From positions 1 to 61,782 of the IMG/VR virus record IMGVR_UViG_3300027896_002037: DNA of 61,782 nt; one strand, given 5' to 3'. Of this stretch, positions 23,764 through 58,844 are shown one piece after another (positions within the stretch are counted from its first letter, which is position 1; the number at the start of each line of letters is the position of its first letter). The notes beneath the pieces were generated by a model. The model ran no database searches and was not told the DNA's origin. It saw nothing but the letters and a program-made list of their open reading frames with translations. Source of the DNA: a virus. Lineage: Duplodnaviria > Caudoviricetes. The position numbers were made by a program, and so were the translations under genes.

Positions 23764-26700
23764 ATGTTATTAAAATTTCTAGATGTAGAACATTTCGTTG
23801 TGACCAATGCATTAGTTCCGGTTACATCAACGGACATCTACACAAAGGATGGTAACTTTGATGAAAATGGACTATTCTCAGACGTGATCTTTGGAAAAGA
23901 TTCTGACGTTAGAAAAAAGTCGTTTTCATATATTAATTTAAATTGTGAAATTGTTCATCCAACCGCATTAGATATTATAAATCGATTAGATAGGAAATTA
24001 ATAGATTTTATATTTACATACGGAACATATCTTCTAGATGATGAAGGAAGTTTATACGAAGATCCAAATGGATTATCCGGAGTTGAGAATTTTAAAAAGA
24101 TCTTTCAAAAAATTAAATTTAGAGGAGGAAGCTCCGAAAGAGAATCCTTCATTAAATTAATACAAGAATCTTATAATTCTGGAGTATTATTTATTAGGAA
24201 GATACTAGTAATACCACCCGAATTTAGACCAGTTTTTAAAGATCCTGCAACGGGAGAAGAAATACGAGATGCACTTAATGATTTTTATATTAAAATATTA
24301 AGACACTCAAATACAATGAGATCTGCATCGGGCGGCGGAATATTTTATGATATACTAAATGCTAATATGCAGAAAAGTGTTAATGATTTTGATGATTATA
24401 TCAAAGCAAAACTCGGTCATAAACACGGACTGATCCGTGAGCAAATACTTGGTAAGCGTGTTGATTTTTCAGCAAGAACCGTAATAGTGAACGGACCAAC
24501 TTTAAAACCACACGAGGCTGGTATTCCAATTGGACGAGCAGTCTCAATATTCGAGCCTTTTATATTAAACGTAATACTTAAGAAAAAAGCGAATGTTGAT
24601 AATGATCTACTAATTCAGAAAATTAAAGAATTTGTTCATCAAGAATTTTCAATAGATGCTGTAAAAAAATTATTACTTTCTATAAAAAATAATGATACTG
24701 TTCCAAGCGATCTTTTTGAAATGATGTTTATAGTTGTATCAAAAGCTATGGAAGGAAGATTGGTTCTATTAAAACGAGATCCCGCACTAAGACCAGAATC
24801 GGTAAGGGCATTCGTTCCAATATTAACAAGAAATGATGTTATATCAATTAGTAATCTTATAACTTCTGGATTTAATGCTGATTTTGATGGGGACATGATG
24901 GCTGTTATACATCCGCTATCAAATGAAGCACAAGAAGATGCTAAAAAAATGATACGTGTACAATCCGCTGATAATATGTCAGCTATGACGATTAAATTAG
25001 CTAAAGATACGGCAATTGGGATATATATCCTTACAAAGGATTATCCTATAAACAAAAAGCCAATTCAAATTACCGAGGAGCTATTAGAGAAATCTACCGA
25101 TCCAACTACTCCAGTTATATATAAAACTAAAGTTACAACTATGGGCCGAGCAATTTTTAATTCCTGCTTACCAGAGGGATTTAGATTTATAGAAACACCA
25201 ATCAAAAGTTCAGATATGGATAAGTTACTAGATGAAATCTATCGTAAGTATGCAGCTAAAGCTGTGTCTAATGCAGCATATAAGTTAATGTTATATGCCT
25301 ATAAATTTGTAACTATTGCATCTCCATCACTGACTATAGATAATTTTATAATGCCAGATTCAATAATAAAAGAAAAAGAAAAATTAGAATTAAGTCAATC
25401 TGTAGATGAAAATATAAAATTATTAGATAAATTGCAGAAAATGATGGAAGCACATTTCTCAGGAACACCGCTACACGACCTTATAGAATCTGGTGCGTCT
25501 AAGGGTTGGGGACAGCCATTTCAGATCTTTGTATCAAAGGGATTTGTTACAGACGTTAAAGGAAATTTATTACCACCGATTAAGGGATCATATGCTGAGG
25601 GGCTGAGTGCAGAAGAACACTTTAATGCTTCATATGGATCTAGAAAAGGAATTGTAGATAGAGTTATCAGTACATCAGATACGGGATATACATCTCGCCA
25701 ATTAGTATATCTTTTAAATGGTGTAGAATTAGATCCACATAATGAGGATTGTAAGACTAAAAGAACTCTTCCTGTTAGATTAAACAAAACTATTATCGGG
25801 AGATTAGAGGGAAGATATATTGTTGATAAGGGAACCTCAAAAGAATTTATAAAATCCAATTATAAAGAAGGTGATGTTATTAATTTAAGAAGTCCGATAT
25901 ACTGTACAGCTAAAAATAATAAAATTTGTTTAACATGTTATGGTAAAAAAGTTGCCGCCAGAGTTAAAACTCCATATATAGGAGTTTTAGCAGCTCAATT
26001 GATTGGTGAAGAGGGTACTCAGGCGACAATGAGGAACTTCCATTGTTTTCAAGGACTTACGTTAATCGTTACGGATAAATATGGGATAATATCTTTTAAA
26101 GATCTTTGGGATAGAACTGAGACAAGCATTAGTGAATTGGATGGATGTGAAGAAAAACTAATCGATTCATGTTCTGTGTTAGATAAAGATGGATGGACAA
26201 AAATCTTAAATATAAAAAGACATATAAAAAATCCAAACTCTAAAATAATGTTTATGAGAATTCGTGGTGGACAATTTTTAATATGTCAGGATAATCATCC
26301 ACACATGCTTTCTAATTTAAACGATTCAGATCAACATTTTAAAGAAACTATTTTAACAGAAAATAGTAATTATGAAAATTATAAAGCAGTTACAGATAAT
26401 CAGATCGCAAAATATTTTGGTAAAACTGACGATGAATTAATGGAAACAATATGTGAAATTTTAAATTCTGAAAGATTAGAAATAACTAGAAACATCGTTT
26501 CATTTAACTCAGATTCTTTAGAAAACATACAGAAATTAATGATATTATTATGTTACTTTAACATATCGGTTGGAGTTCGTCCAATAATGGAAAATTATAA
26601 AAATAAGCAATTATTCAATTTATCTTTTGCTCCAACATTAAGTCAGAAGTCTTATTTTAACACATGCAATAAGATGAAATCATTTCGATATTTACCAGAT

Positions 26701-26907
26701 CAATTTATTAATAGACATACAGATGTTATATCTGTATATAAGGAACTTCCATTTTATAACGAAGATTTTTTATATGACATATGTACAGAGTCATCAACGC
26801 TTATTGCAAATGGCATGTGGGAACATAATTCTGGAGGAGCTGTTAAGTTAGAAAATAAAGATATTCTTAAAGATTTAGTTGAGAATGGCAAAGGATTGGA
26901 GAAATAA
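23764..26907 (+). CDS. rpoC: RNA polymerase beta'-like subunit 1, N-terminal portion (to trigger helix 1), with intein
   Basis: GLFS..IFG, VIPPEFRP, LGKRVDFSAR.VI, L.RDP.L, NADFDGD, TSDTGYTSRQL bridge helix, GEEGTQATMRNFH. Confidence 0.92.
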   Translation: MLLKFLDVEHFVVTNALVPVTSTDIYTKDGNFDENGLFSDVIFGKDSDVRKKSFSYINLNCEIVHPTALDIINRLDRKLIDFIFTYGTYLLDDEGSLYEDPNGLSGVENFKKIFQKIKFRGGSSERESFIKLIQESYNSGVLFIRKILVIPPEFRPVFKDPATGEEIRDALNDFYIKILRHSNTMRSASGGGIFYDILNANMQKSVNDFDDYIKAKLGHKHGLIREQILGKRVDFSARTVIVNGPTLKPHEAGIPIGRAVSIFEPFILNVILKKKANVDNDLLIQKIKEFVHQEFSIDAVKKLLLSIKNNDTVPSDLFEMMFIVVSKAMEGRLVLLKRDPALRPESVRAFVPILTRNDVISISNLITSGFNADFDGDMMAVIHPLSNEAQEDAKKMIRVQSADNMSAMTIKLAKDTAIGIYILTKDYPINKKPIQITEELLEKSTDPTTPVIYKTKVTTMGRAIFNSCLPEGFRFIETPIKSSDMDKLLDEIYRKYAAKAVSNAAYKLMLYAYKFVTIASPSLTIDNFIMPDSIIKEKEKLELSQSVDENIKLLDKLQKMMEAHFSGTPLHDLIESGASKGWGQPFQIFVSKGFVTDVKGNLLPPIKGSYAEGLSAEEHFNASYGSRKGIVDRVISTSDTGYTSRQLVYLLNGVELDPHNEDCKTKRTLPVRLNKTIIGRLEGRYIVDKGTSKEFIKSNYKEGDVINLRSPIYCTAKNNKICLTCYGKKVAARVKTPYIGVLAAQLIGEEGTQATMRNFHCFQGLTLIVTDKYGIISFKDLWDRTETSISELDGCEEKLIDSCSVLDKDGWTKILNIKRHIKNPNSKIMFMRIRGGQFLICQDNHPHMLSNLNDSDQHFKETILTENSNYENYKAVTDNQIAKYFGKTDDELMETICEILNSERLEITRNIVSFNSDSLENIQKLMILLCYFNISVGVRPIMENYKNKQLFNLSFAPTLSQKSYFNTCNKMKSFRYLPDQFINRHTDVISVYKELPFYNEDFLYDICTESSTLIANGMWEHNSGGAVKLENKDILKDLVENGKGLEK
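26044..26829 (+). mobile_element. Intein in beta'-1 trigger loop (262 aa, degenerate endonuclease remnant)
   Basis: MRNFH|CFQGLT...CQDNH...LYDI.T.SSTLIANGMWEHN|SGG; removal restores RNFHSGG. Confidence 0.88.
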
Positions 26908-26912
26908 TTCCA

Positions 26913-27599
26913 ATGATAAAATTATCAGATTATTTTAAACAGGAGAATCAAAAATTATATGCTAAAGAATCGTGTAGTATTTCTCTATCTAAAGATCAGT
27001 ATGACTTGGATGATAATTACACTATATATGAAAACGAGAAAATTCTGGCCGTTAAAGGCCTAGTCTCAGTTTGTAGAATATTAGAAGAAGACATAACGTT
27101 TGATCTTATTTTAGATTATTCTATCAACTTAAATATAGTAGTAGAATTAGAAGATCTAAAAAATGAAATTGTATTGCACTATAATAAGAATGATCTAATT
27201 TTTACAGTTCCTGTCGAACATCATGATGTTAGAAGTAAAGTTCTATACATTAGAAGATTATTGGGTGGCAATGAAATTTTTAAAGATTCTACTCACTTAG
27301 TTATGAAATTAGCAAATATGTATTCAAAGTTTGATCTTATACATTTGGAAGTATTAATCTCGCAATCACTTAGAGATAAAGATCGTCCAATTTTACCCGC
27401 ACGGGTTGGGAAAGATCCAGACCATCCTAAAATGGCTAATATTAAAAAAGATATTTTTTATAGTGGTTTTATCCAAGGTCTTGCATTTGAAAACATCAAT
27501 GAAGCCATTAGAACAGGATTAAGTGCCGAATATAATCTTGAACCAACTATTTTAGAAAAAGTATTTTTGGGCGAAATTGTTAAACCGCCCGAAAAATAA
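26913..27599 (+). CDS. RNA polymerase beta'-like subunit 1, C-terminal portion
   Basis: DVRSKV..IRRLL (trigger helix 2-like), HLEVLISQ, GFIQGLAFEN..EAI..G...LEKVFLGEIV (beta' region H). Confidence 0.75.
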   Translation: MIKLSDYFKQENQKLYAKESCSISLSKDQYDLDDNYTIYENEKILAVKGLVSVCRILEEDITFDLILDYSINLNIVVELEDLKNEIVLHYNKNDLIFTVPVEHHDVRSKVLYIRRLLGGNEIFKDSTHLVMKLANMYSKFDLIHLEVLISQSLRDKDRPILPARVGKDPDHPKMANIKKDIFYSGFIQGLAFENINEAIRTGLSAEYNLEPTILEKVFLGEIVKPPEK

Positions 27600-27619
27600 T
27601 TTAACGAGGAAATATTATA

Positions 27620-30600
27620 ATGGTCCGAATCGATCAATTAAAATTATATAATCAAACAACTGATGGTGTTAGATATATTAGGCATGGGGATGAAAAATAT
27701 CTGATTGCTTTTTTATCTGAAAATTCGACTCTTTTGAACAGTTATTCTAAACTTAATATAAAAATAACCGATGTCAAATATGTCTCAGTGCCGTATACAA
27801 AAATGCCAAGAACCATATTAACATCACAGTTAAAATCGAAATATAAAACTTTAGGATTAAACTCATTACAGTCTAATATACGATTAACATCAGCTCAAAA
27901 TTTATTATATGATCCATCGGAATATATTATAGAACTTGATAAAAAATATAAACCACATCATTATAGAATGTTTGCCGGAACTCAGATTAGAAATGTTTTA
28001 AATACGGGATTCTATCTTTATAAAGAATATAAAAAAGTATTGTTATATTCTATCGATTTGACCAAACCTATACAATCTAACTTTACATCAAGAAAGATTT
28101 TTCCAATTTTACAAGATTTAAAATCTGGTGAATTTGAATATGATTATTTTTTATTTAATGTTATATCAGAGCATGGAAGCAGATATCGTTTATTGGTAAA
28201 AGATAGAGATTTTAAATTTAATCTTGTATGGACATATGTGAAGAGCATAGCCGTCAAACCATCTGTACAAAAAGAATTGGATAGTTCCGATAAATATAAA
28301 ACAGGTGGTGCTATTTTACCATCAGCAGATTTTGTAGAAGATATTCCGGATGATGAACGAGTCAATAACGCAGTTTCAAAACTAGCACCACATATCGATC
28401 CAATAGTAAAGAAAGATAATGTGACAAAAGTTAAAAATTTCGTATCAGATTTTTTAAAGAAAAATCCTCAAATTGTTGATAAAATTGAAACAACTGATGA
28501 TGTAAGCTCTACAGATGCTCAAAAAATTGCGATAGGTTCGATATTGGATAAGACCATTAATAATTCTCAGAAGGCCATGAAACTCATTAGAAATATAGAA
28601 CCTTCTAAGACACAAAAGATTTTATCTAAAGTAGACGCTACATTTACAGATAAATTTATAGAAAAAACAAAAGTTGCATCCACATCTGATAATCAAATTG
28701 TCCAACTTGCAAATGTATCAAAATTAAATGATCATAAAAATCCAATACATCTTTTTGAAAAGAGATCAATTGACTTTAAAACTAACCTTCAAAAAGATAT
28801 AGAATCTGTTTTTAAAGTATTAGAAAATAGAGATATTCCTCTATATACCGAATCTGTAATTTTAACAGATTCTCCATCTAAACCTGGAGAAATTAACAAA
28901 TCTGAAATAACGTTGGCAACTATAACAATTGTAGATATGTTTAAAAATAAGCATATAATACGATTGGAAATACCGAAGATAAATACCGATACTGGAGTAT
29001 TTACAGTTAATGGTAAATCAAAATGTTTAATCAATCAAATGGTCCAGTGTCCAATTTCATTTCCGAGTCCGGGAGATTCTAAATTTGAAAGTGCATATTC
29101 TACTTTTCACATAGAAAGTAAGCATATTAAGAAATATTCTTATTTAAGATCCTACATAGGATCTTTTAAAAATCTACCATTATTAGTTGTAATATCCTTC
29201 ATGTTTGGTTTTGAAAACAGCATGAAATCATATGGAATAGATTATGAGATATCCGATAAAGCTCCCAATAAAATAGATAGTAATGTAGTGAAGATTAATG
29301 ATACTACATTTGTATACTTTAAAAATGTAAACACTGATTTGAAAGCTCAATTATGTAATTCTTTTAATGAAGCAACTCCTTCTCGATATAATATTGATAA
29401 ACCATTATTAAGTAGAGAATATTTTGAAGAATTACTGCAGGCGATAACGGGAACAATCTCAGCATCGTATCATATTAATCGTATTTTCGATAATATCTTA
29501 GACCCAGCCTCTACTCAAGTTCTTATGATACAAGGATTACCACATGATTTAGATTTAATTATAAAATATATGTCTGAAAAAGTAGTGTCTGGATTCTCAC
29601 AAGATAAAAATGATCTTAGCAATCAGCGAATAAGAGGATCCGAAATAATAGCCCATTTAATTGTAAAATCTGTATCTCAGGCATATACCATATATAGAAA
29701 CCAGGTGTTATCTGGAAATAAAAATGCTATATTTGAAATACGAGAAAAAGATATACGGTCTGCATTTTTAACAAGTGATATCGTGTCTAATATGGAATAC
29801 GCCAATCCGGTTGAGGAAATGGCAGTAATGTTGAGAGTGTCTCCTATTGGTAGTGGAATAGGTGGCTTAAAAAATAAGGCGGCAATTTCCTCCGAATATA
29901 GAAATGTACACCAATCATATTTTGGAAATATAGATCCTCTTGATACTCCGGAAGGTGGACAGATTGGAGTTGTTCAACAATTAACTTTAGACGCTGAAAT
30001 TTCATCTACACGCGGCATATTTAATATAAAAGAAGTAGATCCGACTCATGGATCGGGAATTTTATCAACTTCATCGGCATTAATTCCATTTACTAGTTCT
30101 AATGACGGTAATAGAATTATGTTCGCATGTAGCCAGCAAAAACAAATGTTACCTTTAAAAAATCCAGAACCACCCGCAATTATGACCGGATACGAATCTA
30201 TATTAACAAATATACTAACTCCTAACTTTGTAAAAAAGTCTCCAGTAGATGGTATTATAACAGATGTAACGAAAGATAAGATTTCTATAGCTTCTAAAGA
30301 TGGAAAATCATATAGCATAGATCTTTCACCAATACATTTAAGTTCTGGTTCTGGTAGAGATACCTTAAGCATTTTTATTCCTAAAGTTTTAACACATCAA
30401 AAAGTTAGAGAGAAAGAAATTGTCGCAGAAAGCAGTTCAATCAAAGATGGTACTATTTCATTGGGTAGAAATCTCTTAGTTGCATACATGCCATATAAGG
30501 GATATAGCTTTGATGATGGTATTATTATAAATGAGAATTTAGTAAAAAATGAACAGCTAGTCTCTCTTCATGCCATAGTTGAAGAAATCTTAATATCGGA

Positions 30601-31810
30601 AAAAGATAGAATTTTATATATAGTAGAACCCGGAACAAAAACTGAAAAGGGTGATATTTTACTTAGAAAAACTATTGGTGAAATAGAGGAATTATTGGGA
30701 TTTGAGGAAGATGAAACCTCGGTTATGAACGGGCAGGATTTGATAAAGAAGAGCCCTGGAGGAGTTGTCGTCGACATAGAATTATATTCAAATATAGATA
30801 TTTCAAAGAATCCTAAATTAAAAGAGTTTGGTGATAAAACACGAGAACGACACGGGACTGCTCCAAAAGAAAAATTTTCTGTTGGTGGTAAACTCATAAA
30901 AGGAATTCTTATAAAGTTTAAAATCCAGCAGGAACTTTCTATCGATCTTGGGGATAAAATGACAGGTAGATACGGTAATAAAGGAGTTGTGTGCTATATC
31001 GAAGAGAACTCTAAAATGCCACTCTGTCCATGGGGAGATCATGTCGATATAATATTAAACCCATTGGGTGTAATATCAAGAATGAATGTTGGACAGATTT
31101 ATGAAACATATTGTGGCCTTATATCTAAAAGTCTTGCTGGAATGATGGCACATAATACAAAAGAAAGATTTATTCATGCTTTAAAATATGTTTTACCGTT
31201 ATTAGATGGTACACAAAATAAAGAATATAGTACAAATGTGATCGAGGGTCTTGTAGCAACAACTGATAAACAATATCTTAAAATAATGGAAAAAATAAAA
31301 AATGATAGATTTTTTCCAATCATAGTACCGCCTTTTAAATCTCCAACAGTTCAATCTATTAAGAAAGCATTGGATATTTTGGGATTAAAGAGTGGATATA
31401 ATTTATATCTTCCAGAATTTGATGTTAAGACAACCAATGCAGTTCCTGTTGGATATCTATATATGTCTAAACTGGAGCATATTGCCAGATTAAAATCACA
31501 CAGCAGATCTACAGGACCCGTCACAAGTAAAACAGGTCAACCTACGGCAGGTAAGCGACGAGAGGGTGGACAGAGAATGGGAGAATTGGATTCATACTCC
31601 ATATTGTCATATAATGTACCACATTTAGCGTCTGAAATATTCAGTTCAATGTCAGATGATATTAAATCTAAAAATGAAATGATATCTGAAATTGTACAGA
31701 CTGGAGAAACTACATTTAGATATCCTCAAGTCACTCCAGCAAAAGATTTATTATCAAGTTATTTCTTAGCTATGATGTTGGACCAAAGAGAGATGGGTGA
31801 GCTGTTATGA
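27620..31810 (+). CDS. rpoB: RNA polymerase beta-like subunit 1 with long N-terminal extension
   Basis: G.F.VNG, R.VH.SYFG.IDPLDTPEG, DGNR.MF...Q.KQ, LGRNLLVAYMPYKGYSFDDGI, GDKMTGRYGNKGVV, NPLGVISRMNVGQ, GGQRMGELD. Confidence 0.93.
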   Translation: MVRIDQLKLYNQTTDGVRYIRHGDEKYLIAFLSENSTLLNSYSKLNIKITDVKYVSVPYTKMPRTILTSQLKSKYKTLGLNSLQSNIRLTSAQNLLYDPSEYIIELDKKYKPHHYRMFAGTQIRNVLNTGFYLYKEYKKVLLYSIDLTKPIQSNFTSRKIFPILQDLKSGEFEYDYFLFNVISEHGSRYRLLVKDRDFKFNLVWTYVKSIAVKPSVQKELDSSDKYKTGGAILPSADFVEDIPDDERVNNAVSKLAPHIDPIVKKDNVTKVKNFVSDFLKKNPQIVDKIETTDDVSSTDAQKIAIGSILDKTINNSQKAMKLIRNIEPSKTQKILSKVDATFTDKFIEKTKVASTSDNQIVQLANVSKLNDHKNPIHLFEKRSIDFKTNLQKDIESVFKVLENRDIPLYTESVILTDSPSKPGEINKSEITLATITIVDMFKNKHIIRLEIPKINTDTGVFTVNGKSKCLINQMVQCPISFPSPGDSKFESAYSTFHIESKHIKKYSYLRSYIGSFKNLPLLVVISFMFGFENSMKSYGIDYEISDKAPNKIDSNVVKINDTTFVYFKNVNTDLKAQLCNSFNEATPSRYNIDKPLLSREYFEELLQAITGTISASYHINRIFDNILDPASTQVLMIQGLPHDLDLIIKYMSEKVVSGFSQDKNDLSNQRIRGSEIIAHLIVKSVSQAYTIYRNQVLSGNKNAIFEIREKDIRSAFLTSDIVSNMEYANPVEEMAVMLRVSPIGSGIGGLKNKAAISSEYRNVHQSYFGNIDPLDTPEGGQIGVVQQLTLDAEISSTRGIFNIKEVDPTHGSGILSTSSALIPFTSSNDGNRIMFACSQQKQMLPLKNPEPPAIMTGYESILTNILTPNFVKKSPVDGIITDVTKDKISIASKDGKSYSIDLSPIHLSSGSGRDTLSIFIPKVLTHQKVREKEIVAESSSIKDGTISLGRNLLVAYMPYKGYSFDDGIIINENLVKNEQLVSLHAIVEEILISEKDRILYIVEPGTKTEKGDILLRKTIGEIEELLGFEEDETSVMNGQDLIKKSPGGVVVDIELYSNIDISKNPKLKEFGDKTRERHGTAPKEKFSVGGKLIKGILIKFKIQQELSIDLGDKMTGRYGNKGVVCYIEENSKMPLCPWGDHVDIILNPLGVISRMNVGQIYETYCGLISKSLAGMMAHNTKERFIHALKYVLPLLDGTQNKEYSTNVIEGLVATTDKQYLKIMEKIKNDRFFPIIVPPFKSPTVQSIKKALDILGLKSGYNLYLPEFDVKTTNAVPVGYLYMSKLEHIARLKSHSRSTGPVTSKTGQPTAGKRREGGQRMGELDSYSILSYNVPHLASEIFSSMSDDIKSKNEMISEIVQTGETTFRYPQVTPAKDLLSSYFLAMMLDQREMGELL

Positions 31811-32403
31811 GCATTAAAGACGAGGTATATACACGAGCATTAACATCATCTTTATTTCCACTTCCCGAATATGATCCTGATGAAGATACTGAAAATCAAG
31901 AAATAGATCCGGAATTAGAAGCTGATATGTTTGATATTATTAATAATATAGGAACACCTGAATTTAAAAATCTATATCTTATAACGAGTTATTCTTTTAA
32001 GAATATGGATTTGGATACACAGATTAGGTTTTGTTTCGATATTATGGATAAAATTTCTGAAGTATATGGATTTATATCACCAACTACCTTATATTATAAT
32101 AGTATGAATGATATTAAAAATGTATATGAATTTTTAGAATTTTTAGAATTTAAAAATTCTCTATTCCTGCAGATAATCTTAACAGGGCTTGTATCTGACA
32201 TGCGAAGATTAGATATTGATAAATTTTTAGAGGAAAATTGGGATAGGTTAATAAATAGAATAAATAATGTAACAAAGCAGATTACAAATCCTATAATTAA
32301 TTCGTTTTTATTAATTAATACAAAAGATAATTTAATGCAATTTTTAACTAGACTTATTAAAAGAAATATGTTAGATGTAACTTTAGAATTTTTTAAATTA
32401 TAA
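31807..32403 (+). CDS. Hypothetical protein
   Basis: 198 aa, ATGA overlap with beta-1. Confidence 0.6.
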   Translation: MSIKDEVYTRALTSSLFPLPEYDPDEDTENQEIDPELEADMFDIINNIGTPEFKNLYLITSYSFKNMDLDTQIRFCFDIMDKISEVYGFISPTTLYYNSMNDIKNVYEFLEFLEFKNSLFLQIILTGLVSDMRRLDIDKFLEENWDRLINRINNVTKQITNPIINSFLLINTKDNLMQFLTRLIKRNMLDVTLEFFKL

Positions 32404-47236: not shown

Positions 47237-47237
47237 A

Positions 47238-47586: not shown

Positions 47587-47644
47587 TAATGAACTGTTAA
47601 AATTGACAGTTTTTCACCACAACCTCAAAACTAAAGGATTGATC

Positions 47645-49963: not shown

Positions 49964-49982
49964 ATTGTTCTATACCCTTTAG

Positions 49983-50026
49983 GTCAAGGGATGTCACATA
50001 ATAATTCAATGATGGCATCCCTTGAC
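49983..50026 (+). promoter_or_regulatory. Intergenic 14-bp stem-loop between E2 and JAB genes
   Basis: GTCAAGGGATGTCA / TGGCATCCCTTGAC with one U-G pair; no immediate U tract. Confidence 0.55.
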
Positions 50027-50052
50027 AAAATTTCTTGAAAAAGGAGCATTTA

Positions 50053-50973
50053 ATGTTTAAAATTGTCATAAACGATGGAAATACGACACTTCCGATAGAT
50101 AATATTTATTATCTTATTGGAAAAGATGGAATTTATATCCATAAAAAATCAGATATATTTGAGGCATGTGTAAAGGTTAAACATATTTCATTTTTAGAAC
50201 CAGTTAAATCATATGCTAAGTTAAATATTCCAAAGATACCTGAACCTTTAACAAAGCAAATGTATAGTTTCTTTTCAGAGGTATATGCTAGATTTCAATC
50301 TGAAGCGGCTATCATGATATTTTATAATAATACCACTAAAGAACATTCTTTAAAAGTTCCACAACAGGTTATATCATCAGCACACCTCGAATGTTCATAT
50401 AATATAAGCGTGCCAGGATTTCTATCAATAGGAACATGTCATAGTCATGCTGGATTTGGTGCGTTTCACTCCCCAACAGATATTAAAGATGAGAATGATT
50501 TTGACGGTTTGCATATGACATTTGGAAATTTAGATCAAGAAAATATCTCAATATCTATGGAGGTTGTCTCCAATGGATCTAGATTTAAATGTTTACCAGA
50601 AGATTATCTAGATGGTATACAGAAAATTGGTAACCTTTATAAAATCGAACTATCTGAATTTCCCGAAGAGTGGATGGCATGTGTTGAGAAGAAAGTTCAT
50701 GTGGTGCCAGATAAGTTTGATTATTTAAAAGATTTTGCGTTTGGAGATTATTTCTATCCGACGCTTCCAAAGAAATTACCAAAGTTAACGGGATCCAATA
50801 ATATTCATTGTAATAACTGCCAATTCAATAGGGTCATTGAATGTCACAAAGATGATATTGACAATGCTTCGAGAATTCAGGAATTGGATTATTATGACGA
50901 CATGGAAGCTATAATTAAAGCACATCAATATTATGATATATTGAAAGAAGACGAAGATGAGATATTGTATTAA
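50053..50973 (+). CDS. JAB/JAMM metallopeptidase (deubiquitinase-like; PRTRC A-type)
   Basis: YYLIGKDG, IPKIP, SEAA Glu, VPQQ, CHSHAGFGAFHSPTDIKDE (HxH-x7-S-xx-D); start ATG 50053. Confidence 0.88.
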   Translation: MFKIVINDGNTTLPIDNIYYLIGKDGIYIHKKSDIFEACVKVKHISFLEPVKSYAKLNIPKIPEPLTKQMYSFFSEVYARFQSEAAIMIFYNNTTKEHSLKVPQQVISSAHLECSYNISVPGFLSIGTCHSHAGFGAFHSPTDIKDENDFDGLHMTFGNLDQENISISMEVVSNGSRFKCLPEDYLDGIQKIGNLYKIELSEFPEEWMACVEKKVHVVPDKFDYLKDFAFGDYFYPTLPKKLPKLTGSNNIHCNNCQFNRVIECHKDDIDNASRIQELDYYDDMEAIIKAHQYYDILKEDEDEILY

Positions 50974-51640
50974 GATCATTGGTTTGGGCGGCATAGGTAG
51001 TTCGCTGTCAAATATTTTAAGTAGATTTGTTAATTATGATATAGAAAATGAATATATTTTCCATCTTATAGATGGTAAGGAACTTCAACCCAGAAAATTA
51101 GAACGTCAAGAATTTGAAATGGAATCTGGTAATAAGGCCGAACTTAAAAAAATGGAATTGGAGAGAAAATTTCCAAATATCCAATATGTAGAATGCCCAT
51201 TCTATTTAAATGATAGAAATGTTCATAATATTATAGAGGAAGGAGATATAATATTTCTATGCGTCGATAATCATAAATCAAGAAATTTAGCAAGTCGTTT
51301 TGTAGATACATTGGATAATAGTGTTCTTATATCGGCTGGTAATGATCTGACAGATGGTAATGCACAATTATATATTCGACAAGATGGAATTAAAATAACT
51401 CCATCTTTAACCGATTATCATCCAGAAATATCAAATTTTACAGATAAATTACCAGAAGAATTATCATGTGAAGAATTAGCATTTTCTTCTCCACAGATTT
51501 ACTTAGCTAATCTGCAGGCTGCTGTATTGATGTCTGAGATTTTTAGGATTTATAAGTTAAATAAAGAAGTTATTTCTGAATGTTATTTTGATATTGATAC
51601 AATTAATGTGAGATCAGTTACACGAAAACCAAAAAAATAA
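50957..51640 (+). CDS. ThiF/E1-like adenylating enzyme
   Basis: GLGGIGS, IDG, RQ.F, NKAE, CVDNHKSR, SAGN, SCEE (Cys codon 51467), AN. Confidence 0.88.
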   Translation: MRYCIKIIGLGGIGSSLSNILSRFVNYDIENEYIFHLIDGKELQPRKLERQEFEMESGNKAELKKMELERKFPNIQYVECPFYLNDRNVHNIIEEGDIIFLCVDNHKSRNLASRFVDTLDNSVLISAGNDLTDGNAQLYIRQDGIKITPSLTDYHPEISNFTDKLPEELSCEELAFSSPQIYLANLQAAVLMSEIFRIYKLNKEVISECYFDIDTINVRSVTRKPKK

Positions 51641-51653
51641 AGGAGAATATTTT

Positions 51654-52253
51654 ATGAAGAATTTTTATTTAAGTGAGTTGGAAGAAATGGACACAATTGA
51701 GCTTAAGGATATCATTGATCAGTTAACTGATTTTCCCAATCATCCTTCCTACGAGGACGATGCCACAGATGACCAGTTAATTCGTCTTGTAATGTACCTT
51801 CAGACGGCCATTGCAAATGGCGAAGATGTTAAGGTCATCGATGATGATGACGATGATGAGTATGATGATGATTGTGATGATGATAACGATGATGACGATT
51901 ATGATGATGATGATGATGACGAGTGCGATTGTGATGGTTGTAATGGTTGTAATACTGAAGAATCTACTACTGGTGGAATCTCATCTGCAGTAGTCACAGT
52001 TGCTACCGCTATTAATACCGAAACCGAAGAAGCCGACATTACAGTCTATGTGCAGTGTGGTGCTAATTCTGGAAACTACGCTCTGGTTGGAAAGTCCATT
52101 AAGAATGCAATGGTATTTATCGGTGAAGTTATGAATATTGGAGAACTTCGCTACCCCATGGTTAATGGTGTAGAGGTAAGTCAGGATTATATTCTTAAGA
52201 ATGGTGATAGTCTTGAATTTATTAAAATGGCTGGTGAAAAAGGACTGGCCTAA
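51654..52253 (+). CDS. Multidomain ubiquitin-like protein: helical N-domain, Asp-rich tract, C-terminal beta-grasp ending AGEKG-LA
   Basis: V.VQCG, GKSI, VNG.EV..DYILKNGDSLEF.K.AGEKG; last gene of the E2-JAB-E1 run. Confidence 0.8.
   Translation: MKNFYLSELEEMDTIELKDIIDQLTDFPNHPSYEDDATDDQLIRLVMYLQTAIANGEDVKVIDDDDDDEYDDDCDDDNDDDDYDDDDDDECDCDGCNGCNTEESTTGGISSAVVTVATAINTETEEADITVYVQCGANSGNYALVGKSIKNAMVFIGEVMNIGELRYPMVNGVEVSQDYILKNGDSLEFIKMAGEKGLA
51840..51953 (+). repeat. (GAT)n low-complexity tract encoding poly-Asp then CxCxxCxxC
   Basis: DDDDDDEYDDDCDDDNDDDDYDDDDDDECDCDGCNGCN. Confidence 0.9.
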
Positions 52254-52675: not shown

Positions 52676-52678
52676 GTC

Positions 52679-52707
52679 TTGACAGATCAAGATATGCATG
52701 CTATAAA
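52679..52707 (+). promoter_or_regulatory. sigma70-like promoter of the RNAP-2 cluster (TTGACA-17-TATAAA, TGn)
   Basis: TTGACA 52679-52684, spacer ends TGC, TATAAA 52702-52707. Confidence 0.65.
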
Positions 52708-52717
52708 AATATAAAAA

Positions 52718-52978: not shown

Positions 52979-53005
52979 AAATATTTTTATAAGGAGTTGT
53001 GCTAA

Positions 53006-55729
53006 ATGCCAAAATTAGCAGATATTAATAAATTTTGCGAAGATTTGCCAGAGATCAAGACTTCACATACTATAAGTAGAAAAAAATTCCATCCACATGG
53101 ATTGTTTTCTGAACAGATTTTTGGTCCAGTAAAAAGTTTTACTTGTAAATGTAAGATAACTAATAGAAGTGGGAAGCGATGCCCAACATGTGGAATTGAA
53201 TATGTGTCATCCAAAGAACGGCGAAGAAGATTTGCTAAGATAATTTTGCCAGTTCCTGTCATAAATCCACTTTTTTATGATTTATTACATGAAAAATTTA
53301 CATCTGAATTTATTAAAAAATTAGATTTTTTCATGAAGGAAAAATACGCCTGTTTATATGTTCCATATTCCTCGAATGAAGACGTATTCATTACTGAGAA
53401 GAATGAAGATGAAAAATATCCATCTGATAGATTCAGAAGGTATACCCGACATGAGGCTATAAAAGAATTTGTTAAATGGGGAGCTGCGACACTTAATGAT
53501 GCGTACGGGAAATACATATTAGCAAATATTGATAAATTAATTTTGACAGAGATTCCGGTTATTCCACCAGATCTTAGACCGGCAATGCCAGCATCTGCCC
53601 ACAGTGATAGAGTAAAGGGTGATATCATTAATGATAATTATTCGAATATCTTAACTAAAAAAGAAGCAATGGAAAAGACAACATTGGAGATACTCCGAAA
53701 TAATGACTTATATTTTACATATTCTCGGCTTATCCAAAATGAAGTTAATATAATATATAAATATATTACGTCTAAGATGTCAAAAAAAGAAGGATTGATT
53801 AGGGGAAATATTCTTGGAAAACGTATGGACTTTTCGGGGCGTGCAGTTATTGTTCCAGACCCCACTTTAAGTATAGATCAATGCTATCTGCCATACTATA
53901 TGCTTTTAGAGTTATTTAAAATCCAAATTGCACATCAATTAATAGAAGCTGGAAAATTTAAGATTTTTAATAATGCTCTAGATTATATTTCAGAGTGTAT
54001 AGAATTAAACGACTATGCGTTATATGATATAGTAGAAAAAGTAACTAAAAATGAGGTGTGCTTACTCAATAGACAACCATCTCTTCACAGACTTGGATTA
54101 TTAGGGTTTGAGATTAAAGTGTGTAAAGGATTTACTATTGGAATCTATCCACTGATATGCGCCGGATATAATGCGGATTTTGATGGAGATCAGATGGCAG
54201 TATATCTTCCTATCTCAGAAGAAGCCAAGCAAGAAGTTCGTGAAAAGTTTTTTGCATCTAAAAATTTATATAGTCCTACAAATGCATCCTTAACGACAAT
54301 ACCATCTCAGGATATTGTTCTTGGTATATATTTATTAACTAATAATATGATTCCGGAATTAGCGGAAAATGTTGAATGTAAGGGGCATATGATAAGCGGT
54401 GGTAGAGCTATTTTTAACAATATATTGCCGAAAGATTTTGGAATAGTAGATGACGTAATCCGAAAAAAATTGCTCTATTCTATATTAGCAGAAGTTGCAC
54501 AGAAATACGATTCACATGTTGTAACAGAAATATTGGATAATATTAAAAATGTTGGATTTTATTATGCAACATATTTTGGAGTAACTCTATCATTGGATAA
54601 TTTTAAAATAGAGGGAATAGACAAATTTACCTCAGATATATATGATATGGAAACATCAAAAGAACAGTTATCTGCAATTACCAGTAAAGAGACTGAAGCT
54701 TATTTAAAAAATCACTTTAAATATTCATATCTGATAGATTCTGGTGCACGCGGAACATGGGATCAGGCCAGACAAATTGTAATGACTCGTGGATATATTT
54801 CTAACTTCAATGGACAAATTCAGGAAACTCCTATTAAGAGCAGTCTCGTAACTGGACTTTCACCCGAAGAGTTCTTTACATCAACATATGGATCTCGCAA
54901 AGGCCTATTAGATACCGCAATTAACACGGGAGTCTCTGGTTATTTATTCAGAAAATTAATTTTTGCAGCATGTAATATGGAAAAAAGTTTAGACTTAGAT
55001 GATTGCGGAACAACAGAATATTTAGACATCAAAATAGATACTGAAAAAATTGCAAAAATGTTAGAATATAGATGGTATCTTGATGAAGTTGATAATATCG
55101 AAAAAATGGTAACATCTGAAAATTATAAGAATTTGATTGGAAAGACTCTTAAATTTAGAAGTCCTGTCTACTGCAAATCAGATCAAATTTGTCATAAATG
55201 CTACGGCGGTTTATATAAACTGTTACATAGTAGATATATCGGAATCATTGCAGCACAGGGAATTGGAGAAATTGGTACGCAGTTAGTATTAAGATCATTC
55301 CATACATCAGGTGTGGCATCGACAAAGATAGAAACAATTGATTTAATGAAACAGGAAGATATCGTTGGTGATCTTACCACCGTAAATAAATTACTACATG
55401 GAAAAAGTAAGGATCTAGAAGGAGTAGCTCCATCGGAATTAGCACGACAATTATTTAAGATATATAACCAAACCAGTGAGATACACCACGTACACATGGA
55501 AGTTATTGTAGCACAAAAGATGTGGGCTGGAAGATATAAGTGGAGATTGCATCCTAAGCGGGATAATATTCCATACACATGGCATAGTATTCAGACAATA
55601 CCATCAATGGAAGGGTGGTTATTAGGATTTGGTTTTGGAAATCCTAAAAAGAATCTTTTATTGGGAATGTTGACAAAAAGTATGTATTCTGGTATATTGG
55701 ATAAAATTTTATTGGGCAAAAAACTTTAA
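53006..55729 (+). CDS. rpoC: RNA polymerase beta'-like subunit 2 (unsplit, compact)
   Basis: GLFSEQIFGP, CKC...CPTC Zn ribbon, VIPPDLRP, LGKRMDFSGRAVI, NRQPSLH, YNADFDGDQMAV, TG.SGYL.RKL, GE.GTQL.LRSFHTSG, HMEVIVAQ. Confidence 0.95.
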   Translation: MPKLADINKFCEDLPEIKTSHTISRKKFHPHGLFSEQIFGPVKSFTCKCKITNRSGKRCPTCGIEYVSSKERRRRFAKIILPVPVINPLFYDLLHEKFTSEFIKKLDFFMKEKYACLYVPYSSNEDVFITEKNEDEKYPSDRFRRYTRHEAIKEFVKWGAATLNDAYGKYILANIDKLILTEIPVIPPDLRPAMPASAHSDRVKGDIINDNYSNILTKKEAMEKTTLEILRNNDLYFTYSRLIQNEVNIIYKYITSKMSKKEGLIRGNILGKRMDFSGRAVIVPDPTLSIDQCYLPYYMLLELFKIQIAHQLIEAGKFKIFNNALDYISECIELNDYALYDIVEKVTKNEVCLLNRQPSLHRLGLLGFEIKVCKGFTIGIYPLICAGYNADFDGDQMAVYLPISEEAKQEVREKFFASKNLYSPTNASLTTIPSQDIVLGIYLLTNNMIPELAENVECKGHMISGGRAIFNNILPKDFGIVDDVIRKKLLYSILAEVAQKYDSHVVTEILDNIKNVGFYYATYFGVTLSLDNFKIEGIDKFTSDIYDMETSKEQLSAITSKETEAYLKNHFKYSYLIDSGARGTWDQARQIVMTRGYISNFNGQIQETPIKSSLVTGLSPEEFFTSTYGSRKGLLDTAINTGVSGYLFRKLIFAACNMEKSLDLDDCGTTEYLDIKIDTEKIAKMLEYRWYLDEVDNIEKMVTSENYKNLIGKTLKFRSPVYCKSDQICHKCYGGLYKLLHSRYIGIIAAQGIGEIGTQLVLRSFHTSGVASTKIETIDLMKQEDIVGDLTTVNKLLHGKSKDLEGVAPSELARQLFKIYNQTSEIHHVHMEVIVAQKMWAGRYKWRLHPKRDNIPYTWHSIQTIPSMEGWLLGFGFGNPKKNLLLGMLTKSMYSGILDKILLGKKL

Positions 55730-55745
55730 TACTTAGGAGTGTGCA

Positions 55746-58700
55746 GTGAAGAATATCATAAATCCAAATTTTAAAATGAAAGATGGTCATAATCTTTTTA
55801 AAATTAGGGAAGAGGATTATAATAATATTATTCCAAATGTAAGAATGATTTTAGAACCAGTTTTAAAAGAAGGATTTCAGATATTAGAACTTGGTCTAAA
55901 AGATTCTTATGCTAGTGAGGTTGATAGAAATCTATATCAATTACTTGTAATAACCCTTCAAAAAGGTGAACATGTTGTTGATCTAACTTTAAAGATTCCA
56001 AAGATTGTCGATGGAAATTTTGTTATTATTGGCGGAAAGAGAAAGATTCCGCTTTTTCAATTATTTGATCTACCATTTGTAACAACCTCAGATGGTACAT
56101 TAAAAATAAGAACTAATATAGCTACATTTAATATATCAAGAACAAAGAATTCTCCATATGTAGTTATGAAAGTTCTCGGTTCAGATATACCATTATCATT
56201 ATTAATCTTATCTAGATATATAGATGTCAATGTTATAATTGATTTTTTCGATCTAAATAATATTGAGTTTCCACTTGATGATGAAGATTTTGATTATAGT
56301 ACTCTAACTCTATATGATGCCCTCAGATATGATCTTAAGAATTATATCGAGGATTACGGTGGAAAGAGTAAAGAATTTTATGCCAATATGATAAATGGAT
56401 TCTATACAAAATCCGCATATGCAAAGGGAGAGAATATTCTCTATGCACTGGATATTGTAACAAAGGTTGATCCGATTTCTGCTAGATTTTTTAAAAGCGA
56501 TCATATTATAGATGAAGCTGTTAATTTTATATATAGAGTTTCGTCCGGAGAATTTATAGATGATACCAATCTATTAAATAAGCGTATGCGCTGTATGGAA
56601 TATATGGTCCTGAAGATAATATCAAAAGCTGCATTCGATTTGTGCATGCTAAGTAAGGGATCGAGTATAAAATTAAAAATAAATAGTAAGCAGATTATAT
56701 CAGAGGTCAGTGTATCTGATGTTGTACAATTCGATTCGTCAATCAATCCAATTGAAAACTTAACATCAATTTTACGATGTACTTATCTTGGAAAAAGCAC
56801 TGGTGGGTTCGATAGATCCAGTATTCCAACTCGACTGCGTGATATTAATCCATCTATGTTTGGTAGAATTTGTCCCGTAGAAACTCCAGATAGGGAAAAT
56901 TGTGGAGTAGTACAATCTTTAATACCAAATGTTAACTTCGATCAAAATTATAAGTTTACCGAAGAAATTTGTGCCAAGCAACCAGTATCATTAGCGGTAT
57001 CGATGGTTCCTTTTTTAGAGAAAGACGATCAAACCCGACTACAAATGGCATCCTCACAAATGAGGCAGGCGATAAATTTAAAGAAGATTGAACAACCATT
57101 AATTCAAAGTGGTTCAGAAGGATTATATTCAGACTATACATATTTTATTAAGAAAGCTAAGAAAAATGGAGAAGTTGTATACGCAGATAATGACCTTTTG
57201 ATGATATCATATGATGATCATACATACGATATTTTTGATATTGGAATTAGAAATACATATACTGAAAATATCGATATACCCAAAGTATATGTATCGGTTG
57301 GAGATAAGGTAAAGGCTGGAGATATCCTATCAGAAAGCAACTATTCAGATGGTGGTAAAATTCAAATAGGTAGAAATCTTTTAACTGTTATAATGCCATA
57401 CTATGGATATAACTATGAGGATTCTATAGTTATCTCGGATAAATTAGTAAATGAAGATATTTTAACGTCTATGCATCATGTTAATTTGGGATTTATTCTA
57501 TCGCCCGATAAAGTACTATTGAGCTTAGATAATGATAGATATAGACCTTTACCAAATCCACAAACATATTGTAATGATAAAGATTCTCCTTTTCAAACAC
57601 CACGAAAAATTGAATTGATCAAGCATGGGGAACCATATGCCATTATAAAAGAATTACAAGATGATCCCCTTATGTTTACCAATAATTTCGGTGAGTCGAT
57701 AAAACTCTTGGCAAAAAAAGATATCATGATAACCTCAGTAGAATTATATCCGAATACATATAATCACTCAGTGCCGGAATTCAAAGATTGGGTTGAGAAG
57801 AAATTTCAAACTCAGTTAGATCATCAAAATAAGATTCATGAAATTATTAAACAGTATGTACCAAAAGAAGGAATTCAACGATATATTAAAGATAGGAGTT
57901 TGGATAGGTTTTCATTAGCTGGAAAATTTAAAATAAAAGATGATCCTATAAAAGGTATGTACATCTCAATTAAGGGTGTATATTCTAGAAAAATTGATCA
58001 GGGTGATAAAATTGGAAACAGGCATGGAAATAAAGGAGTTATTTGTAAAATCGTTCCTCATGATAAAATGCCACAACTTCCAGATGGAAGACATGCAGAA
58101 ATAATCATTAATCCATTAGGAATAATTTCAAGAATGAACATTGGGCAGACCTTTGAATTACATTTGGCAATGTCCTTAAATGATTTGAAAAACAATTTAT
58201 TTAAAATGTTAGACAAACGAAGCTCACAGAAAGATATGAAAAAATATATACTTGATTATATAAAAATTTTAGACAATACAAATGAGCGATGGTATACAGA
58301 ACAAGTTGAAGAAATGTTTACGGGTTATAGTACCCATATAGATAATGAATTCATTAGTAAACTTTATCTATTGGCACCACCATTTGAATCATCGTCATAT
58401 GAACAATTACAGTTAGCTTGTCAGTATACAAATACTGCACTGGAATATAAGATATATGATCCTAGTATAGAGAAATATATTATTAATCCCGAAGGGGTTG
58501 GATTTATGTATTTCTTTAGAATGATACATATAGCAGAAGAAAAGATTTCTGCTAGAGGTATCGGATCATATTCTAAAAAAACACTTCAACCACCGGGGGG
58601 CCGTAGAAACCACGGCGGTCAACGATGTGGAGAAATGGAAACTTTTTGCTTTGCAGCACATGATGGTATTGAAAATTTAACAGAAATTTTAACTACGAAA

Positions 58701-58844
58701 TCAGACTGCATGGGAAAGAAAAATAAATATCTAAAAGAGGCACTTGCTTCAGAATATTTAAAAGAAGTCTCTGAAGACGATATGATACCAGAAAGTGTTA
58801 AGCTGATGGAGGCATATCTAAAAACTGTTGGTATAGATTTATAA
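55746..58844 (+). CDS. rpoB: RNA polymerase beta-like subunit 2 (unsplit)
   Basis: FGRICPVETPD, DD..R.QM.SSQMRQA, GRNL...MPY.GYNYEDSI, GDKIGNRHGNKGVI, NPLGIISRMNIGQ, GGQRCGEME. Confidence 0.95.
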   Translation: MKNIINPNFKMKDGHNLFKIREEDYNNIIPNVRMILEPVLKEGFQILELGLKDSYASEVDRNLYQLLVITLQKGEHVVDLTLKIPKIVDGNFVIIGGKRKIPLFQLFDLPFVTTSDGTLKIRTNIATFNISRTKNSPYVVMKVLGSDIPLSLLILSRYIDVNVIIDFFDLNNIEFPLDDEDFDYSTLTLYDALRYDLKNYIEDYGGKSKEFYANMINGFYTKSAYAKGENILYALDIVTKVDPISARFFKSDHIIDEAVNFIYRVSSGEFIDDTNLLNKRMRCMEYMVLKIISKAAFDLCMLSKGSSIKLKINSKQIISEVSVSDVVQFDSSINPIENLTSILRCTYLGKSTGGFDRSSIPTRLRDINPSMFGRICPVETPDRENCGVVQSLIPNVNFDQNYKFTEEICAKQPVSLAVSMVPFLEKDDQTRLQMASSQMRQAINLKKIEQPLIQSGSEGLYSDYTYFIKKAKKNGEVVYADNDLLMISYDDHTYDIFDIGIRNTYTENIDIPKVYVSVGDKVKAGDILSESNYSDGGKIQIGRNLLTVIMPYYGYNYEDSIVISDKLVNEDILTSMHHVNLGFILSPDKVLLSLDNDRYRPLPNPQTYCNDKDSPFQTPRKIELIKHGEPYAIIKELQDDPLMFTNNFGESIKLLAKKDIMITSVELYPNTYNHSVPEFKDWVEKKFQTQLDHQNKIHEIIKQYVPKEGIQRYIKDRSLDRFSLAGKFKIKDDPIKGMYISIKGVYSRKIDQGDKIGNRHGNKGVICKIVPHDKMPQLPDGRHAEIIINPLGIISRMNIGQTFELHLAMSLNDLKNNLFKMLDKRSSQKDMKKYILDYIKILDNTNERWYTEQVEEMFTGYSTHIDNEFISKLYLLAPPFESSSYEQLQLACQYTNTALEYKIYDPSIEKYIINPEGVGFMYFFRMIHIAEEKISARGIGSYSKKTLQPPGGRRNHGGQRCGEMETFCFAAHDGIENLTEILTTKSDCMGKKNKYLKEALASEYLKEVSEDDMIPESVKLMEAYLKTVGIDL

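Follow-up and report, generated by a model that had tools for sequence, protein, structure and literature searches.

Two paralogous multisubunit RNA polymerase cores, one with a predicted trigger-loop intein, in an uncultured jumbo phage of the mReC lineage

Results

Two polymerase sets in one phage fragment

The window, that is, the whole stretch of DNA analysed here, is one whole linear virus record of IMG/VR (IMGVR_UViG_3300027896_002037; Duplodnaviria, Caudoviricetes; 61,782 bases, CheckV completeness about 20%), and the subject of this study is two sets of genes for the subunits beta' and beta of multisubunit RNA polymerase (RNAP) that it encodes, named set 1 (beta'-1 and beta-1) and set 2 (beta'-2 and beta-2) in their order along the DNA. 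The two cores of multisubunit RNA polymerase in this phage are paralogous. Both sets are real polymerases of the lineage described as multimeric-RNAP-encoding Caudovirales (mReC), arranged as two enzymes, and the window is a fragment of an uncultured jumbo phage of this lineage, with a genome of about 250-310 kb and a T4-type capsid.

The presence of two divergent beta'/beta pairs had been proposed from the letters of the DNA, and Pfam matches bore it out for all four genes. In set 1, Rpb1 domains 2, 5 and 3 were matched at 23764-26907 (1.3e-23 for PF00623, 8e-18 and 5e-5) and Rpb2 domains 6 and 3 at 27620-31810 (1.7e-48 for PF00562, and 7e-10); in set 2, Rpb1 domains 2, 5, 1 and 3 were matched at 53006-55729 (from 7e-33, for PF00623, to 3.5e-10) and Rpb2 domains 6, 3 and 7 at 55746-58844 (1.2e-43 for PF00562, 6.5e-12 and 1.7e-9). 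The NADFDGD motif stands at residues 371-377 of beta'-1 and 389-395 of beta'-2, and it was found in 18/18 set-1 and 73/75 set-2 sequences of the family, while the lysines of the GDK...GNKG motif are K1109 and K1117 in beta-1 and K754 and K762 in beta-2. Identity between the sets is 31% for beta' (E 1e-76, over beta'-1 residues 142-760) and 27% for beta (E 1e-81).

The finer points of the sequence-only reading fared well, with one amendment. Beta'-2 has a zinc ribbon (C47, C49, C59, C62) and beta'-1 is devoid of an N-terminal CxC...CxxC; beta-1 has about 370-390 extra N-terminal residues, its residue 432 aligning with residue 63 of beta-2. Alpha and sigma subunits were not recognisable, PF01000 and PF04542 each matching 0/6 records (the window and five large relatives), when the same models matched 14/14 and 10/14 control genomes, respectively. 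Both polymerases had also been described as complete, with largely unsplit subunits; both cores are indeed complete, but beta'-1 carries a predicted intein and is split in the window (Table 1).

Table 1. Features of the two polymerase sets and their surroundings in the window (ORF, open reading frame; aa, amino acids)
Feature	Position	Strand	Basis or remark
Virion structural protein	4254-4979		PHROG match; single such gene in the scan
Baseplate-hub/gp5-like tail-lysozyme gene	20045-21019		PHROG match; 2.7 kb upstream of beta'-1
Conserved ORF, 479 aa, first of set-1 module	21859..23298	+	homologues upstream of beta'-1 in 14/18 set-1 loci
AACAAAAT, the window's version of a promoter-like motif	23316..23323	+	in the 51-nt gap after the stop at 23296-23298
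Conserved ORF, 124 aa, directly before beta'-1	23350..23724	+	homologues in 15/18 set-1 loci; candidate accessory protein
Beta'-1 N-terminal piece, 1047 aa including the predicted intein	23764..26907	+	Pfam Rpb1; 31% identity to beta'-2; no zinc ribbon
Predicted intein, 262 aa, residues 761-1022, trigger loop of beta'-1	26044..26829	+	insertion boundaries, junction residues
Beta'-1 C-terminal piece, 228 aa, with the insertion domain of the trigger loop and the conserved C-terminal region	26913..27599	+	
Beta-1 N-terminal extension, about 390 aa, alpha/beta and helical domain	27620..28789	+	
Beta-1 core	28790..31810	+	Rpb2 domains 6, 3; K1109, K1117; 27% identity to beta-2
Conserved ORF, 198 aa, overlaps beta-1 stop	31807..32403	+	homologues directly after beta-1 in 17/18 set-1 loci; candidate accessory protein
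TTGACA-N17-TATAAA before the small ORF upstream of beta'-2	52679..52707	+	not conserved
Beta'-2, 907 aa, compact	53006..55729	+	Rpb1 domains; zinc ribbon; NADFDGD 389-395
Beta-2, 1032 aa	55746..58844	+	Rpb2 domains 6, 3, 7; K754, K762; 44-50% identity to relatives

Relatives and lineage

Relatives of beta'-2 are encoded in 298 of 309 candidate IMG/VR stretches, the best 80 at 47-52% identity, and set 1 was followed on 18 contigs found through an alignment of the beta-1 extension. In a large protein collection, more than 7,700 proteins match beta'-2 at E <=1e-30; they are a mixture of family members and bacterial beta', none of them from a named isolate, and a search for near-identical DNA in named phages found none. 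P0087 and P0118, which belong to the family and come from contigs as long as 255 kb, are filed in NCBI as hypothetical proteins of 'Candidatus Thorarchaeota archaeon' metagenome-assembled genomes (MAGs), probably because contigs of phages were binned with archaea.

Each of the five largest relatives, with 248-312 kb and in two cases complete with terminal repeats, encodes exactly two beta' and two beta subunits. The two sets lie 35-45 kb apart on the same strand in all five, and in one of the complete genomes (G001) they flank the record ends. Since two sets occur together on one genome in 5/5 large relatives, the window is not a chimera; an assembly joining two one-set phages, which the sequence-only reading had itself raised as a danger, is hardly credible. 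Ten of the 18 set-1 contigs are also in the beta'-2 list, the guanine-cytosine (GC) content of the window stays between 0.28 and 0.35 with a steady positive GC skew throughout, and every ORF of at least 130 aa is on the + strand, all of which speaks against a join.

A Gp23-type capsid protein (PF07068) is encoded by 5/5 large relatives (1e-32 to 4e-35) and none was found in the window, which is a fragment. Phage genes surround both sets, and beta and beta' lie on one contig, as in the definition of mReC. This lineage has been in print since 2020: the description by Weinheimer and Aylward (2020, PMC7481178), as far as its main text goes, covers mReC from IMG/VR and metagenomes, some of more than 200 kb, and the undivided beta and beta' that stand apart from bacteria and the Gp23-type capsid are common to mReC and the lineage of the window. 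In that main text neither 'two copies' nor 'multiple copies', 'virion' or 'intein' is used (0 instances each), though its supplements may list copies per contig; the split beta' with a predicted intein in set 1 is a difference from mReC as described there. According to a passage in PMC7598289, the mReC trees omitted phiKZ-type enzymes. A literature search for later use of the name mReC returned the original paper and passing citations only.

The nearest cultured phages by polymerase type are Rhizobium phage RHph_Y65, Vibrio phage 1.031.O and YerA41, with a single beta' locus each. PF00623 and PF00562 miss most of the pieces in phiKZ-type genomes, and beta in RHph_Y65 and Vibrio 1.031.O, so these models are unsuitable for counting sets in phiKZ-type phages. 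The chimallin family phrog_4795 matched 0/6 family records, including the two complete genomes, with a model that matches phiKZ but misses AR9 and is therefore too narrow.

The interrupted beta'-1 gene

The alignment of beta'-1 to beta'-2 ends at residue 760 (...TMRNFH), in the N-terminal arm of the beta'-1 trigger loop, and it is here that 262 residues are inserted. The junctions read MRNFH/CFQG...WEHN/SGGAV in the window, where relatives have an uninterrupted MRTFH-TGGA, and the insertion is missing from 17/17 relatives with a complete beta'-1. All the junction residues of an intein are there: C761, a histidine within CQDNHPH (which we take to be that of block B), the terminal HN (WEHN1022), and S1023 at position +1. 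When 5.8 billion protein clusters were searched by words, one other protein with this element came to light, P0006, at the same site and with the same split; its intein is 65% identical, its flanks are nearly identical, and the junction residues are unchanged. No intein or Hint match was obtained in a Pfam search of the insertion at E up to 0.1, its sole match among PDB sequences was a LAGLIDADG meganuclease at E 0.11, and an AlphaFold2 (AF2) model built from two sequences had a predicted local distance difference test score (pLDDT) of 33, too low for fold comparison. The insertion is thus identified by its position and its junction residues: it has the anatomy of an intein, and its splicing is predicted. 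A literature search for an intein in the trigger loop of a phage polymerase returned unrelated papers only. Elsewhere in the family, inteins have also invaded the set-2 beta', since Pfam Intein_splicing domains occur in 2 of 120 listed beta'-2 homologues, P0010 (1420 aa) and P0019 (1069 aa); locus L086 likewise has a beta'-2 of 1069 aa.

The N-terminal frame of beta'-1 stops 25 residues past the intein, and the remainder of the subunit is encoded by the next ORF, which aligns with the last 220 residues of unsplit relatives (39-45% identity, E 1e-45 to 1e-55) and with beta'-2 residues 816-905 (E 6e-4); GGAG lies 10 nt ahead of its ATG. Among the 17 relatives with a complete gene, beta'-1 is unsplit (about 1000 aa) in 13 and split at the same place in four. 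The core of set 1 consequently consists of three polypeptides in the window and of two in 12/17 relatives; in L103 beta'-1 is unsplit but beta-1 is in two ORFs. Free-standing endonuclease genes lie exactly between the beta'-1 pieces in two of the four split relatives (L100:5425-6312 and L101:5299-6300); the former encodes 295 aa matching the homing endonucleases of phrog_3339 (8e-52), and the latter 333 aa with an HNH-like end. Because of this placement, the split of beta'-1 most likely arose from invasion by a homing endonuclease.

Genes in pieces made by homing endonucleases occur in T4-like phages, and in the AR9 record g145, g270, g189 and g078 contain group I introns and homing endonucleases. 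In contrast to these mobile elements, what is found here is a trigger-loop intein beside a split in which no endonuclease gene remains, and this combination is particular to the window.

Two interruptions of beta'-1 within 25 residues of the trigger loop could also mean that set 1 of this phage is a decaying copy, inactivated by intein and split, and that set 2 alone works. The lack of a Pfam intein match agrees with decay, as does the end branch of the window's sequence (win_pair1), the longest of its clade at 0.73-1.01 against 0.07-0.47. We nevertheless find decay very unlikely. All three frames are open with catalytic motifs intact, and the first cysteine, block-B histidine, terminal HN and +1 serine of the intein have stayed unchanged in P0006 despite 65% identity elsewhere. 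Moreover, the same split recurs in 4/17 relatives, the C-terminal piece is preceded by a ribosome-binding site of its own, and split RNA polymerase subunits do work in phiKZ-type phages, as stated in PMC7598289.

The set-1 module and the beta-1 extension

Set 1 is part of a module of conserved order: the 479-aa ORF, the 124-aa ORF, beta', beta and the 198-aa ORF. Homologues of the three additional ORFs were found in 0/80 set-2 loci, and none of the three had a family match (PHROG for all, Pfam for the 479- and 198-aa ORFs). They are candidates for accessory subunits. The probable start of the 124-aa ORF is ATG 23350, with GAGG ahead of it.

The N-terminal extension is fused to beta-1 in 17/18 relatives and is a separate ORF in one, which makes it a separable module; in that relative (L103, identical with genome G003) a 315-aa ORF at 7001-7948 is followed by a 1003-aa beta at 8110-11121. 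A search with the single sequence of the extension gave no relatives, and the alignment-based search then gave the 18. Its AF2 model has a pLDDT of 80, with residues 1-211 mostly above 90, and the Foldseek matches were weak (template modelling score, TM, about 0.2). The best matches of the wide search were P-loop-kinase-like folds at Z up to 7.9, within the range deemed common and not decisive; the alpha/beta domain is loosely similar to P-loop kinases but is devoid of a Walker A motif, and no function was assigned to the extension. Comparison of the extension with the N-terminus of phiKZ gp178 revealed no likeness (hhalign probability 0.2).

Signals upstream of the two sets

It had been claimed that set 1 stands behind a particular motif and set 2 behind a TTGACA promoter. 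The former claim held in part. In the window, CCAACAAAAT is found 34 nt ahead of ATG 23350 of the 124-aa ORF, with which the set-1 operon (this ORF, beta' and beta) begins, and in 12/12 relatives the equivalent gene has TAGAACAAA 30-51 nt ahead of its start; an AACAAA-type site is thus present there, but AACAAAAT is not enriched across the window (11 found against 11.6 expected). Of 519 upstream regions, drawn from 92 loci of the family and from the window, 52 contain GAACAAA, against 5.8 expected, and 108 contain AACAAA, most often 20-40 nt ahead of the start codon; 700-nt windows were uninformative for AACAAA, with a background of 258/470. Before set 2 the motif occurs in 14/75 regions, equal to the background of 87/519. 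Its presence in 12/12 cases before set 1 and its background rate before set 2 indicate that different signals govern the two sets. In 70 regions before the set-2 operon, no 7-mer or 8-mer was enriched.

The motif could not be labelled 'late', because AACAAA occurs in 0/5 regions 15-60 nt upstream of the capsid gene; a variant, TAGAACAT, occurs in 2/5. The late promoter of AR9 is given in PMC7598289 as A(-11)ACA-N6-T-A/G(+1); AACA is common to it and the set-1 motif, but in the examples compared the downstream positions do not fit. The string TAGAACA occurs 22 times in the window against 11.6 expected, 15 of the 22 on the + strand, and none of 100 shuffles reached 22; the copies at 23654, 27509 and 52803, inside coding sequence, are 110, 111 and 203 nt ahead of beta'-1, beta-1 and beta'-2, respectively.

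The latter claim, of a TTGACA promoter for set 2, was not supported. A comparable site within 700 nt upstream was found in 1/77 loci, this one being the window itself, with a background of 18/470, and sigma-70-like matches in the two halves of the window are near chance (143 against 121.5 +/- 9.9 and 108 against 125.5 +/- 11.5). Another TTGACA is located at about 21791, upstream of the set-1 module, so this hexamer does not separate the sets.

Likeness to the phiKZ and AR9 polymerases

All four window proteins were compared with those of phiKZ and AR9, virion and non-virion enzymes being named according to the annotation of the phiKZ and AR9 records (Table 2).

Table 2. E-values of the window proteins against virion and non-virion polymerase subunits of AR9 and phiKZ
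Window protein	Virion enzyme	Non-virion enzyme
beta'-1	AR9 g145 (beta'-N) 4.9e-32	AR9 g270 (beta'-N) 2.2e-9
beta'-2	AR9 g145 4.2e-7	AR9 g270 4.0e-20
beta'-1	AR9 g264 (beta'-C) 4.0e-16	AR9 g154 (beta'-C) 1.6e-13
beta'-2	AR9 g264 8.9e-23	AR9 g154 3.1e-26
beta'-1	phiKZ gp180 (annotated structural head protein) 1.1e-11	phiKZ gp55 no match
beta'-2	phiKZ gp180 no match	phiKZ gp55 1.9e-4
beta-1	phiKZ gp178 (head protein) 1.1e-17	
beta-1	AR9 g189 1.9e-10, g078 2e-6	AR9 g089 3.5e-15
beta-2	AR9 g189 1e-4, g078 no match	AR9 g089 2.3e-19

In an alignment of N-termini, the zinc ribbon is deleted with identical boundaries in set 1, the virion beta'-N of Goe21 and phiKZ gp180, and it is kept in set 2, phiKZ gp55, YerA41, RHph_Y65, Vibrio 1.031.O and bacteria; across the family it is present in 0/18 set-1 and 75/75 set-2 sequences. 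Since the virion beta'-N of phiKZ and Goe21 are without a ribbon, its loss is no bar to a working polymerase.

The virion polymerase of phiKZ and AR9 (gp178, gp180; g145, g264, g189, g078) resembles set 1 in the missing zinc ribbon, in giving the best matches, in having a tail-lysin or fibre gene nearby, and in the absence of alpha and sigma. It differs in being made of at least five polypeptides, according to the account in PMC7598289, whereas here beta is undivided, and 13/17 relatives have an undivided beta'. The non-virion polymerase (gp55, gp74, gp71-73, gp123, gp68; g270, g154, g105, g089, g226) is matched better by set 2, which shares the zinc ribbon with gp55 and consists of two whole polypeptides as opposed to four in the phiKZ and AR9 enzymes. 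The family of the fifth, sigma-like subunit (gp68/g226; phrog_3209) matched 0/6 family records, with a model that also misses AR9 g226 and is therefore too narrow.

Set 1 had moreover been said to lie next to virion genes. This is true of the one gp5-like tail-lysozyme gene, and that single gene makes the neighbourhood thin. In 4/4 phiKZ-type records with a named neighbour (phiKZ 187786-196047, and RAY, OBP and AgentSmith, L264-L266), the virion beta'-N gene and a gene for a tail fibre, tail lysin or transglycosylase are arranged head to head.

Phylogeny

Trees were built on beta', with bacterial but no archaeal, eukaryotic or giant-virus enzymes among the rows; one bacterial row, L182, with a fused ORF of 2697 aa, was omitted throughout. 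The best beta'-matching ORF of this Vicinamibacterales MAG contig is of a length that suggests a fused rpoB-rpoC frame. In a quick full-length beta' tree (44 rows, 998 columns) phage enzymes stood apart from bacteria with a support of 99, and set 1, set 2, virion, non-virion and YerA41 enzymes were joined at 93, the branching among them being unresolved. A careful beta'-N tree (29 rows, 449 columns; two virion and two non-virion sequences) grouped both sets with the virion and non-virion enzymes at 100/97, with YerA41 inside. To a third tree (32 rows, 445 columns; seven virion and seven non-virion sequences) RAY, AgentSmith, OBP, VP4B (the non-virion piece of which has only 276 aa) and UFV_DC4 were added, and two family pairs and three bacteria were dropped; in it YerA41 fell outside the polymerase group. 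That group is apart from bacteria, RHph_Y65 and Vibrio 1.031.O at 100/97 in the 29-row tree and at 83/79 in the 32-row tree, and the split between bacteria and phages had a support of 99 to 100/100 across trees. The beta' sequences thus firmly place both sets in the same radiation as the phiKZ-type enzymes. The phylogeny proposed in the sequence-only reading, run here with bacterial, phiKZ-like and metagenomic phage enzymes, separated both sets from bacteria and did not establish orthology of set 1 with the virion enzymes.

Other genes of the window

A PHROG scan of 40 ORFs revealed a jumbo-phage complement of replication and nucleotide-metabolism genes: NrdD, a UvsX-like recombinase, a Cas4-like nuclease, dCMP deaminase, two topoisomerase II subunits, a helicase, SbcCD, DNA ligase and RNA ligase. 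NrdD, the anaerobic ribonucleotide reductase (6662-10693), has 1343 aa, about twice the usual length, with a Pfam Intein_splicing match at residues 589-883 (9e-8), a weak LAGLIDADG match and a weak Hint match near residues 971-1002. It probably holds one or two inteins, which, given the Intein_splicing match, would not be limited to the polymerase in this phage.

An Nramp-type metal-ion transporter (12272-13567; PF01566, 8.9e-70), an unusual auxiliary gene for a phage, has the AACAAA motif 27 nt before its start. Directly upstream of set 2, at 47603-52253, four consecutive ORFs have matches, three of them weak, to prokaryotic E2 (0.0012), a JAB deubiquitinase (0.0015), a ThiF-type E1 (3e-10) and a ThiS/ubiquitin-like C-terminus (0.043); as a group they resemble an operon for ubiquitin-like conjugation carried by the phage. 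The last ORF of this group (199 aa) has homologues in 60/80 set-2 loci.

Discussion

One plausible explanation for two polymerases in one phage, to which we give a probability of about 0.5, would be that set 1 is the packaged enzyme, the counterpart of the phiKZ/AR9 virion polymerase, and set 2 the non-virion counterpart. By analogy, set 1 would be made late, packaged and injected, and would transcribe early genes, including those of set 2, and set 2 would transcribe middle and late genes. In the phage of the window, beta'-1 would first have to splice out its trigger-loop intein and would then assemble from two polypeptides. The earlier assignment of set 1 as a virion-type enzyme, which this explanation takes up, stands as far as likeness goes: scores and the zinc-ribbon deletion lean towards virion for set 1 and non-virion for set 2, but the trees leave orthology unsettled. 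The case for orthology is made by the score pattern and the shared deletion, which are partly one signal.

Several observations weigh against this assignment. The score pattern and the deletion are not fully independent, because the score advantage of beta'-1 partly reflects the same deletion, and in a local BLASTP comparison beta-2 also matches gp178 (1.9e-10, compared with 2e-17 for beta-1). The non-virion beta'-N of the AR9 type (Goe21) is likewise without a zinc ribbon, so ribbon loss recurs. In the 29-row tree, set 1 joined the virion enzymes at 65/91 and set 2 the non-virion enzymes at 56/71, which is low, and the approximately unbiased (AU) test did not reject a grouping of set 1 with set 2, at a cost of 7.8 units of log-likelihood (lnL; p 0.17). 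The better-sampled 32-row tree took the form of a ladder, with virion and non-virion enzymes joined at 71/59, set 1 at 83/77 and set 2 at 83/79; placing set 1 with the virion enzymes costs 2.0 lnL there (p 0.33), and placing it with set 2 costs 1.85 lnL (p 0.32), and the AU test rejected neither. The trees fit an old shared duplication and independent duplications alike, and cannot decide between them. Finally, the capsid is T4-type (Gp23 in 5/5 large relatives), not phiKZ-type.

A less probable alternative is that the two sets arose by a duplication of this lineage's own, separate from the origin of the phiKZ-type pair, and that both enzymes are made after infection and divide the temporal programme, for instance into middle and late genes, none being packaged and the host polymerase reading the earliest genes. 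That neither AU test rejected set 1 with set 2 would suit such a duplication, and so would the union of phiKZ-type virion and non-virion enzymes in the better-sampled tree and the single set in each of RHph_Y65, Vibrio 1.031.O and YerA41. T4-like phages begin on the host polymerase, and the T4-type capsid of this lineage, together with sigma-70-like sites ahead of both modules in the window, would be in keeping with a start of that kind; these sites are, however, at chance level and unconserved. A duplication within the lineage would also demand that the zinc-ribbon deletion with identical boundaries arose twice, and it sits poorly with a reciprocal score pattern that spans both subunits and with the position of the set-1 module near a tail-lysozyme gene, like that of virion beta'-N in phiKZ, RAY, OBP and AgentSmith.

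If set 1 and set 2 are indeed the counterparts of the virion and non-virion enzymes, the division between the two would predate the divergence of phiKZ/AR9-type jumbo phages from those with a T4-type capsid, with the undivided ancestral genes kept in this lineage; we put this forward as a tentative proposal. Should it be true, the fragmented subunits of the phiKZ type would be derived, by way of repeated invasion by homing endonucleases, introns and inteins, and the window and its relatives would represent intermediates, with a trigger-loop intein, an endonuclease gene between beta' pieces and, in one relative, a separate beta extension. This would speak against the view, as put in the portion of Iyer et al. 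(2021, PMC7824862) drawn on here, of many-piece phage polymerases as remnants of a time that preceded the last universal common ancestor. An undivided lineage would give a direction to the evolution of the fragmented forms.

Multisubunit phage polymerases that do without alpha and sigma offer a test of how small a transcription machine of the cellular type can be. The phiKZ-type enzymes, with their four to five fragments, are hard to handle, and the same two-enzyme logic with whole genes would give simpler material for structural and biochemical work. The predicted trigger-loop intein would, in addition, make polymerase activity in the phage of the window dependent on protein splicing at the catalytic centre, a dependence that is directly testable.

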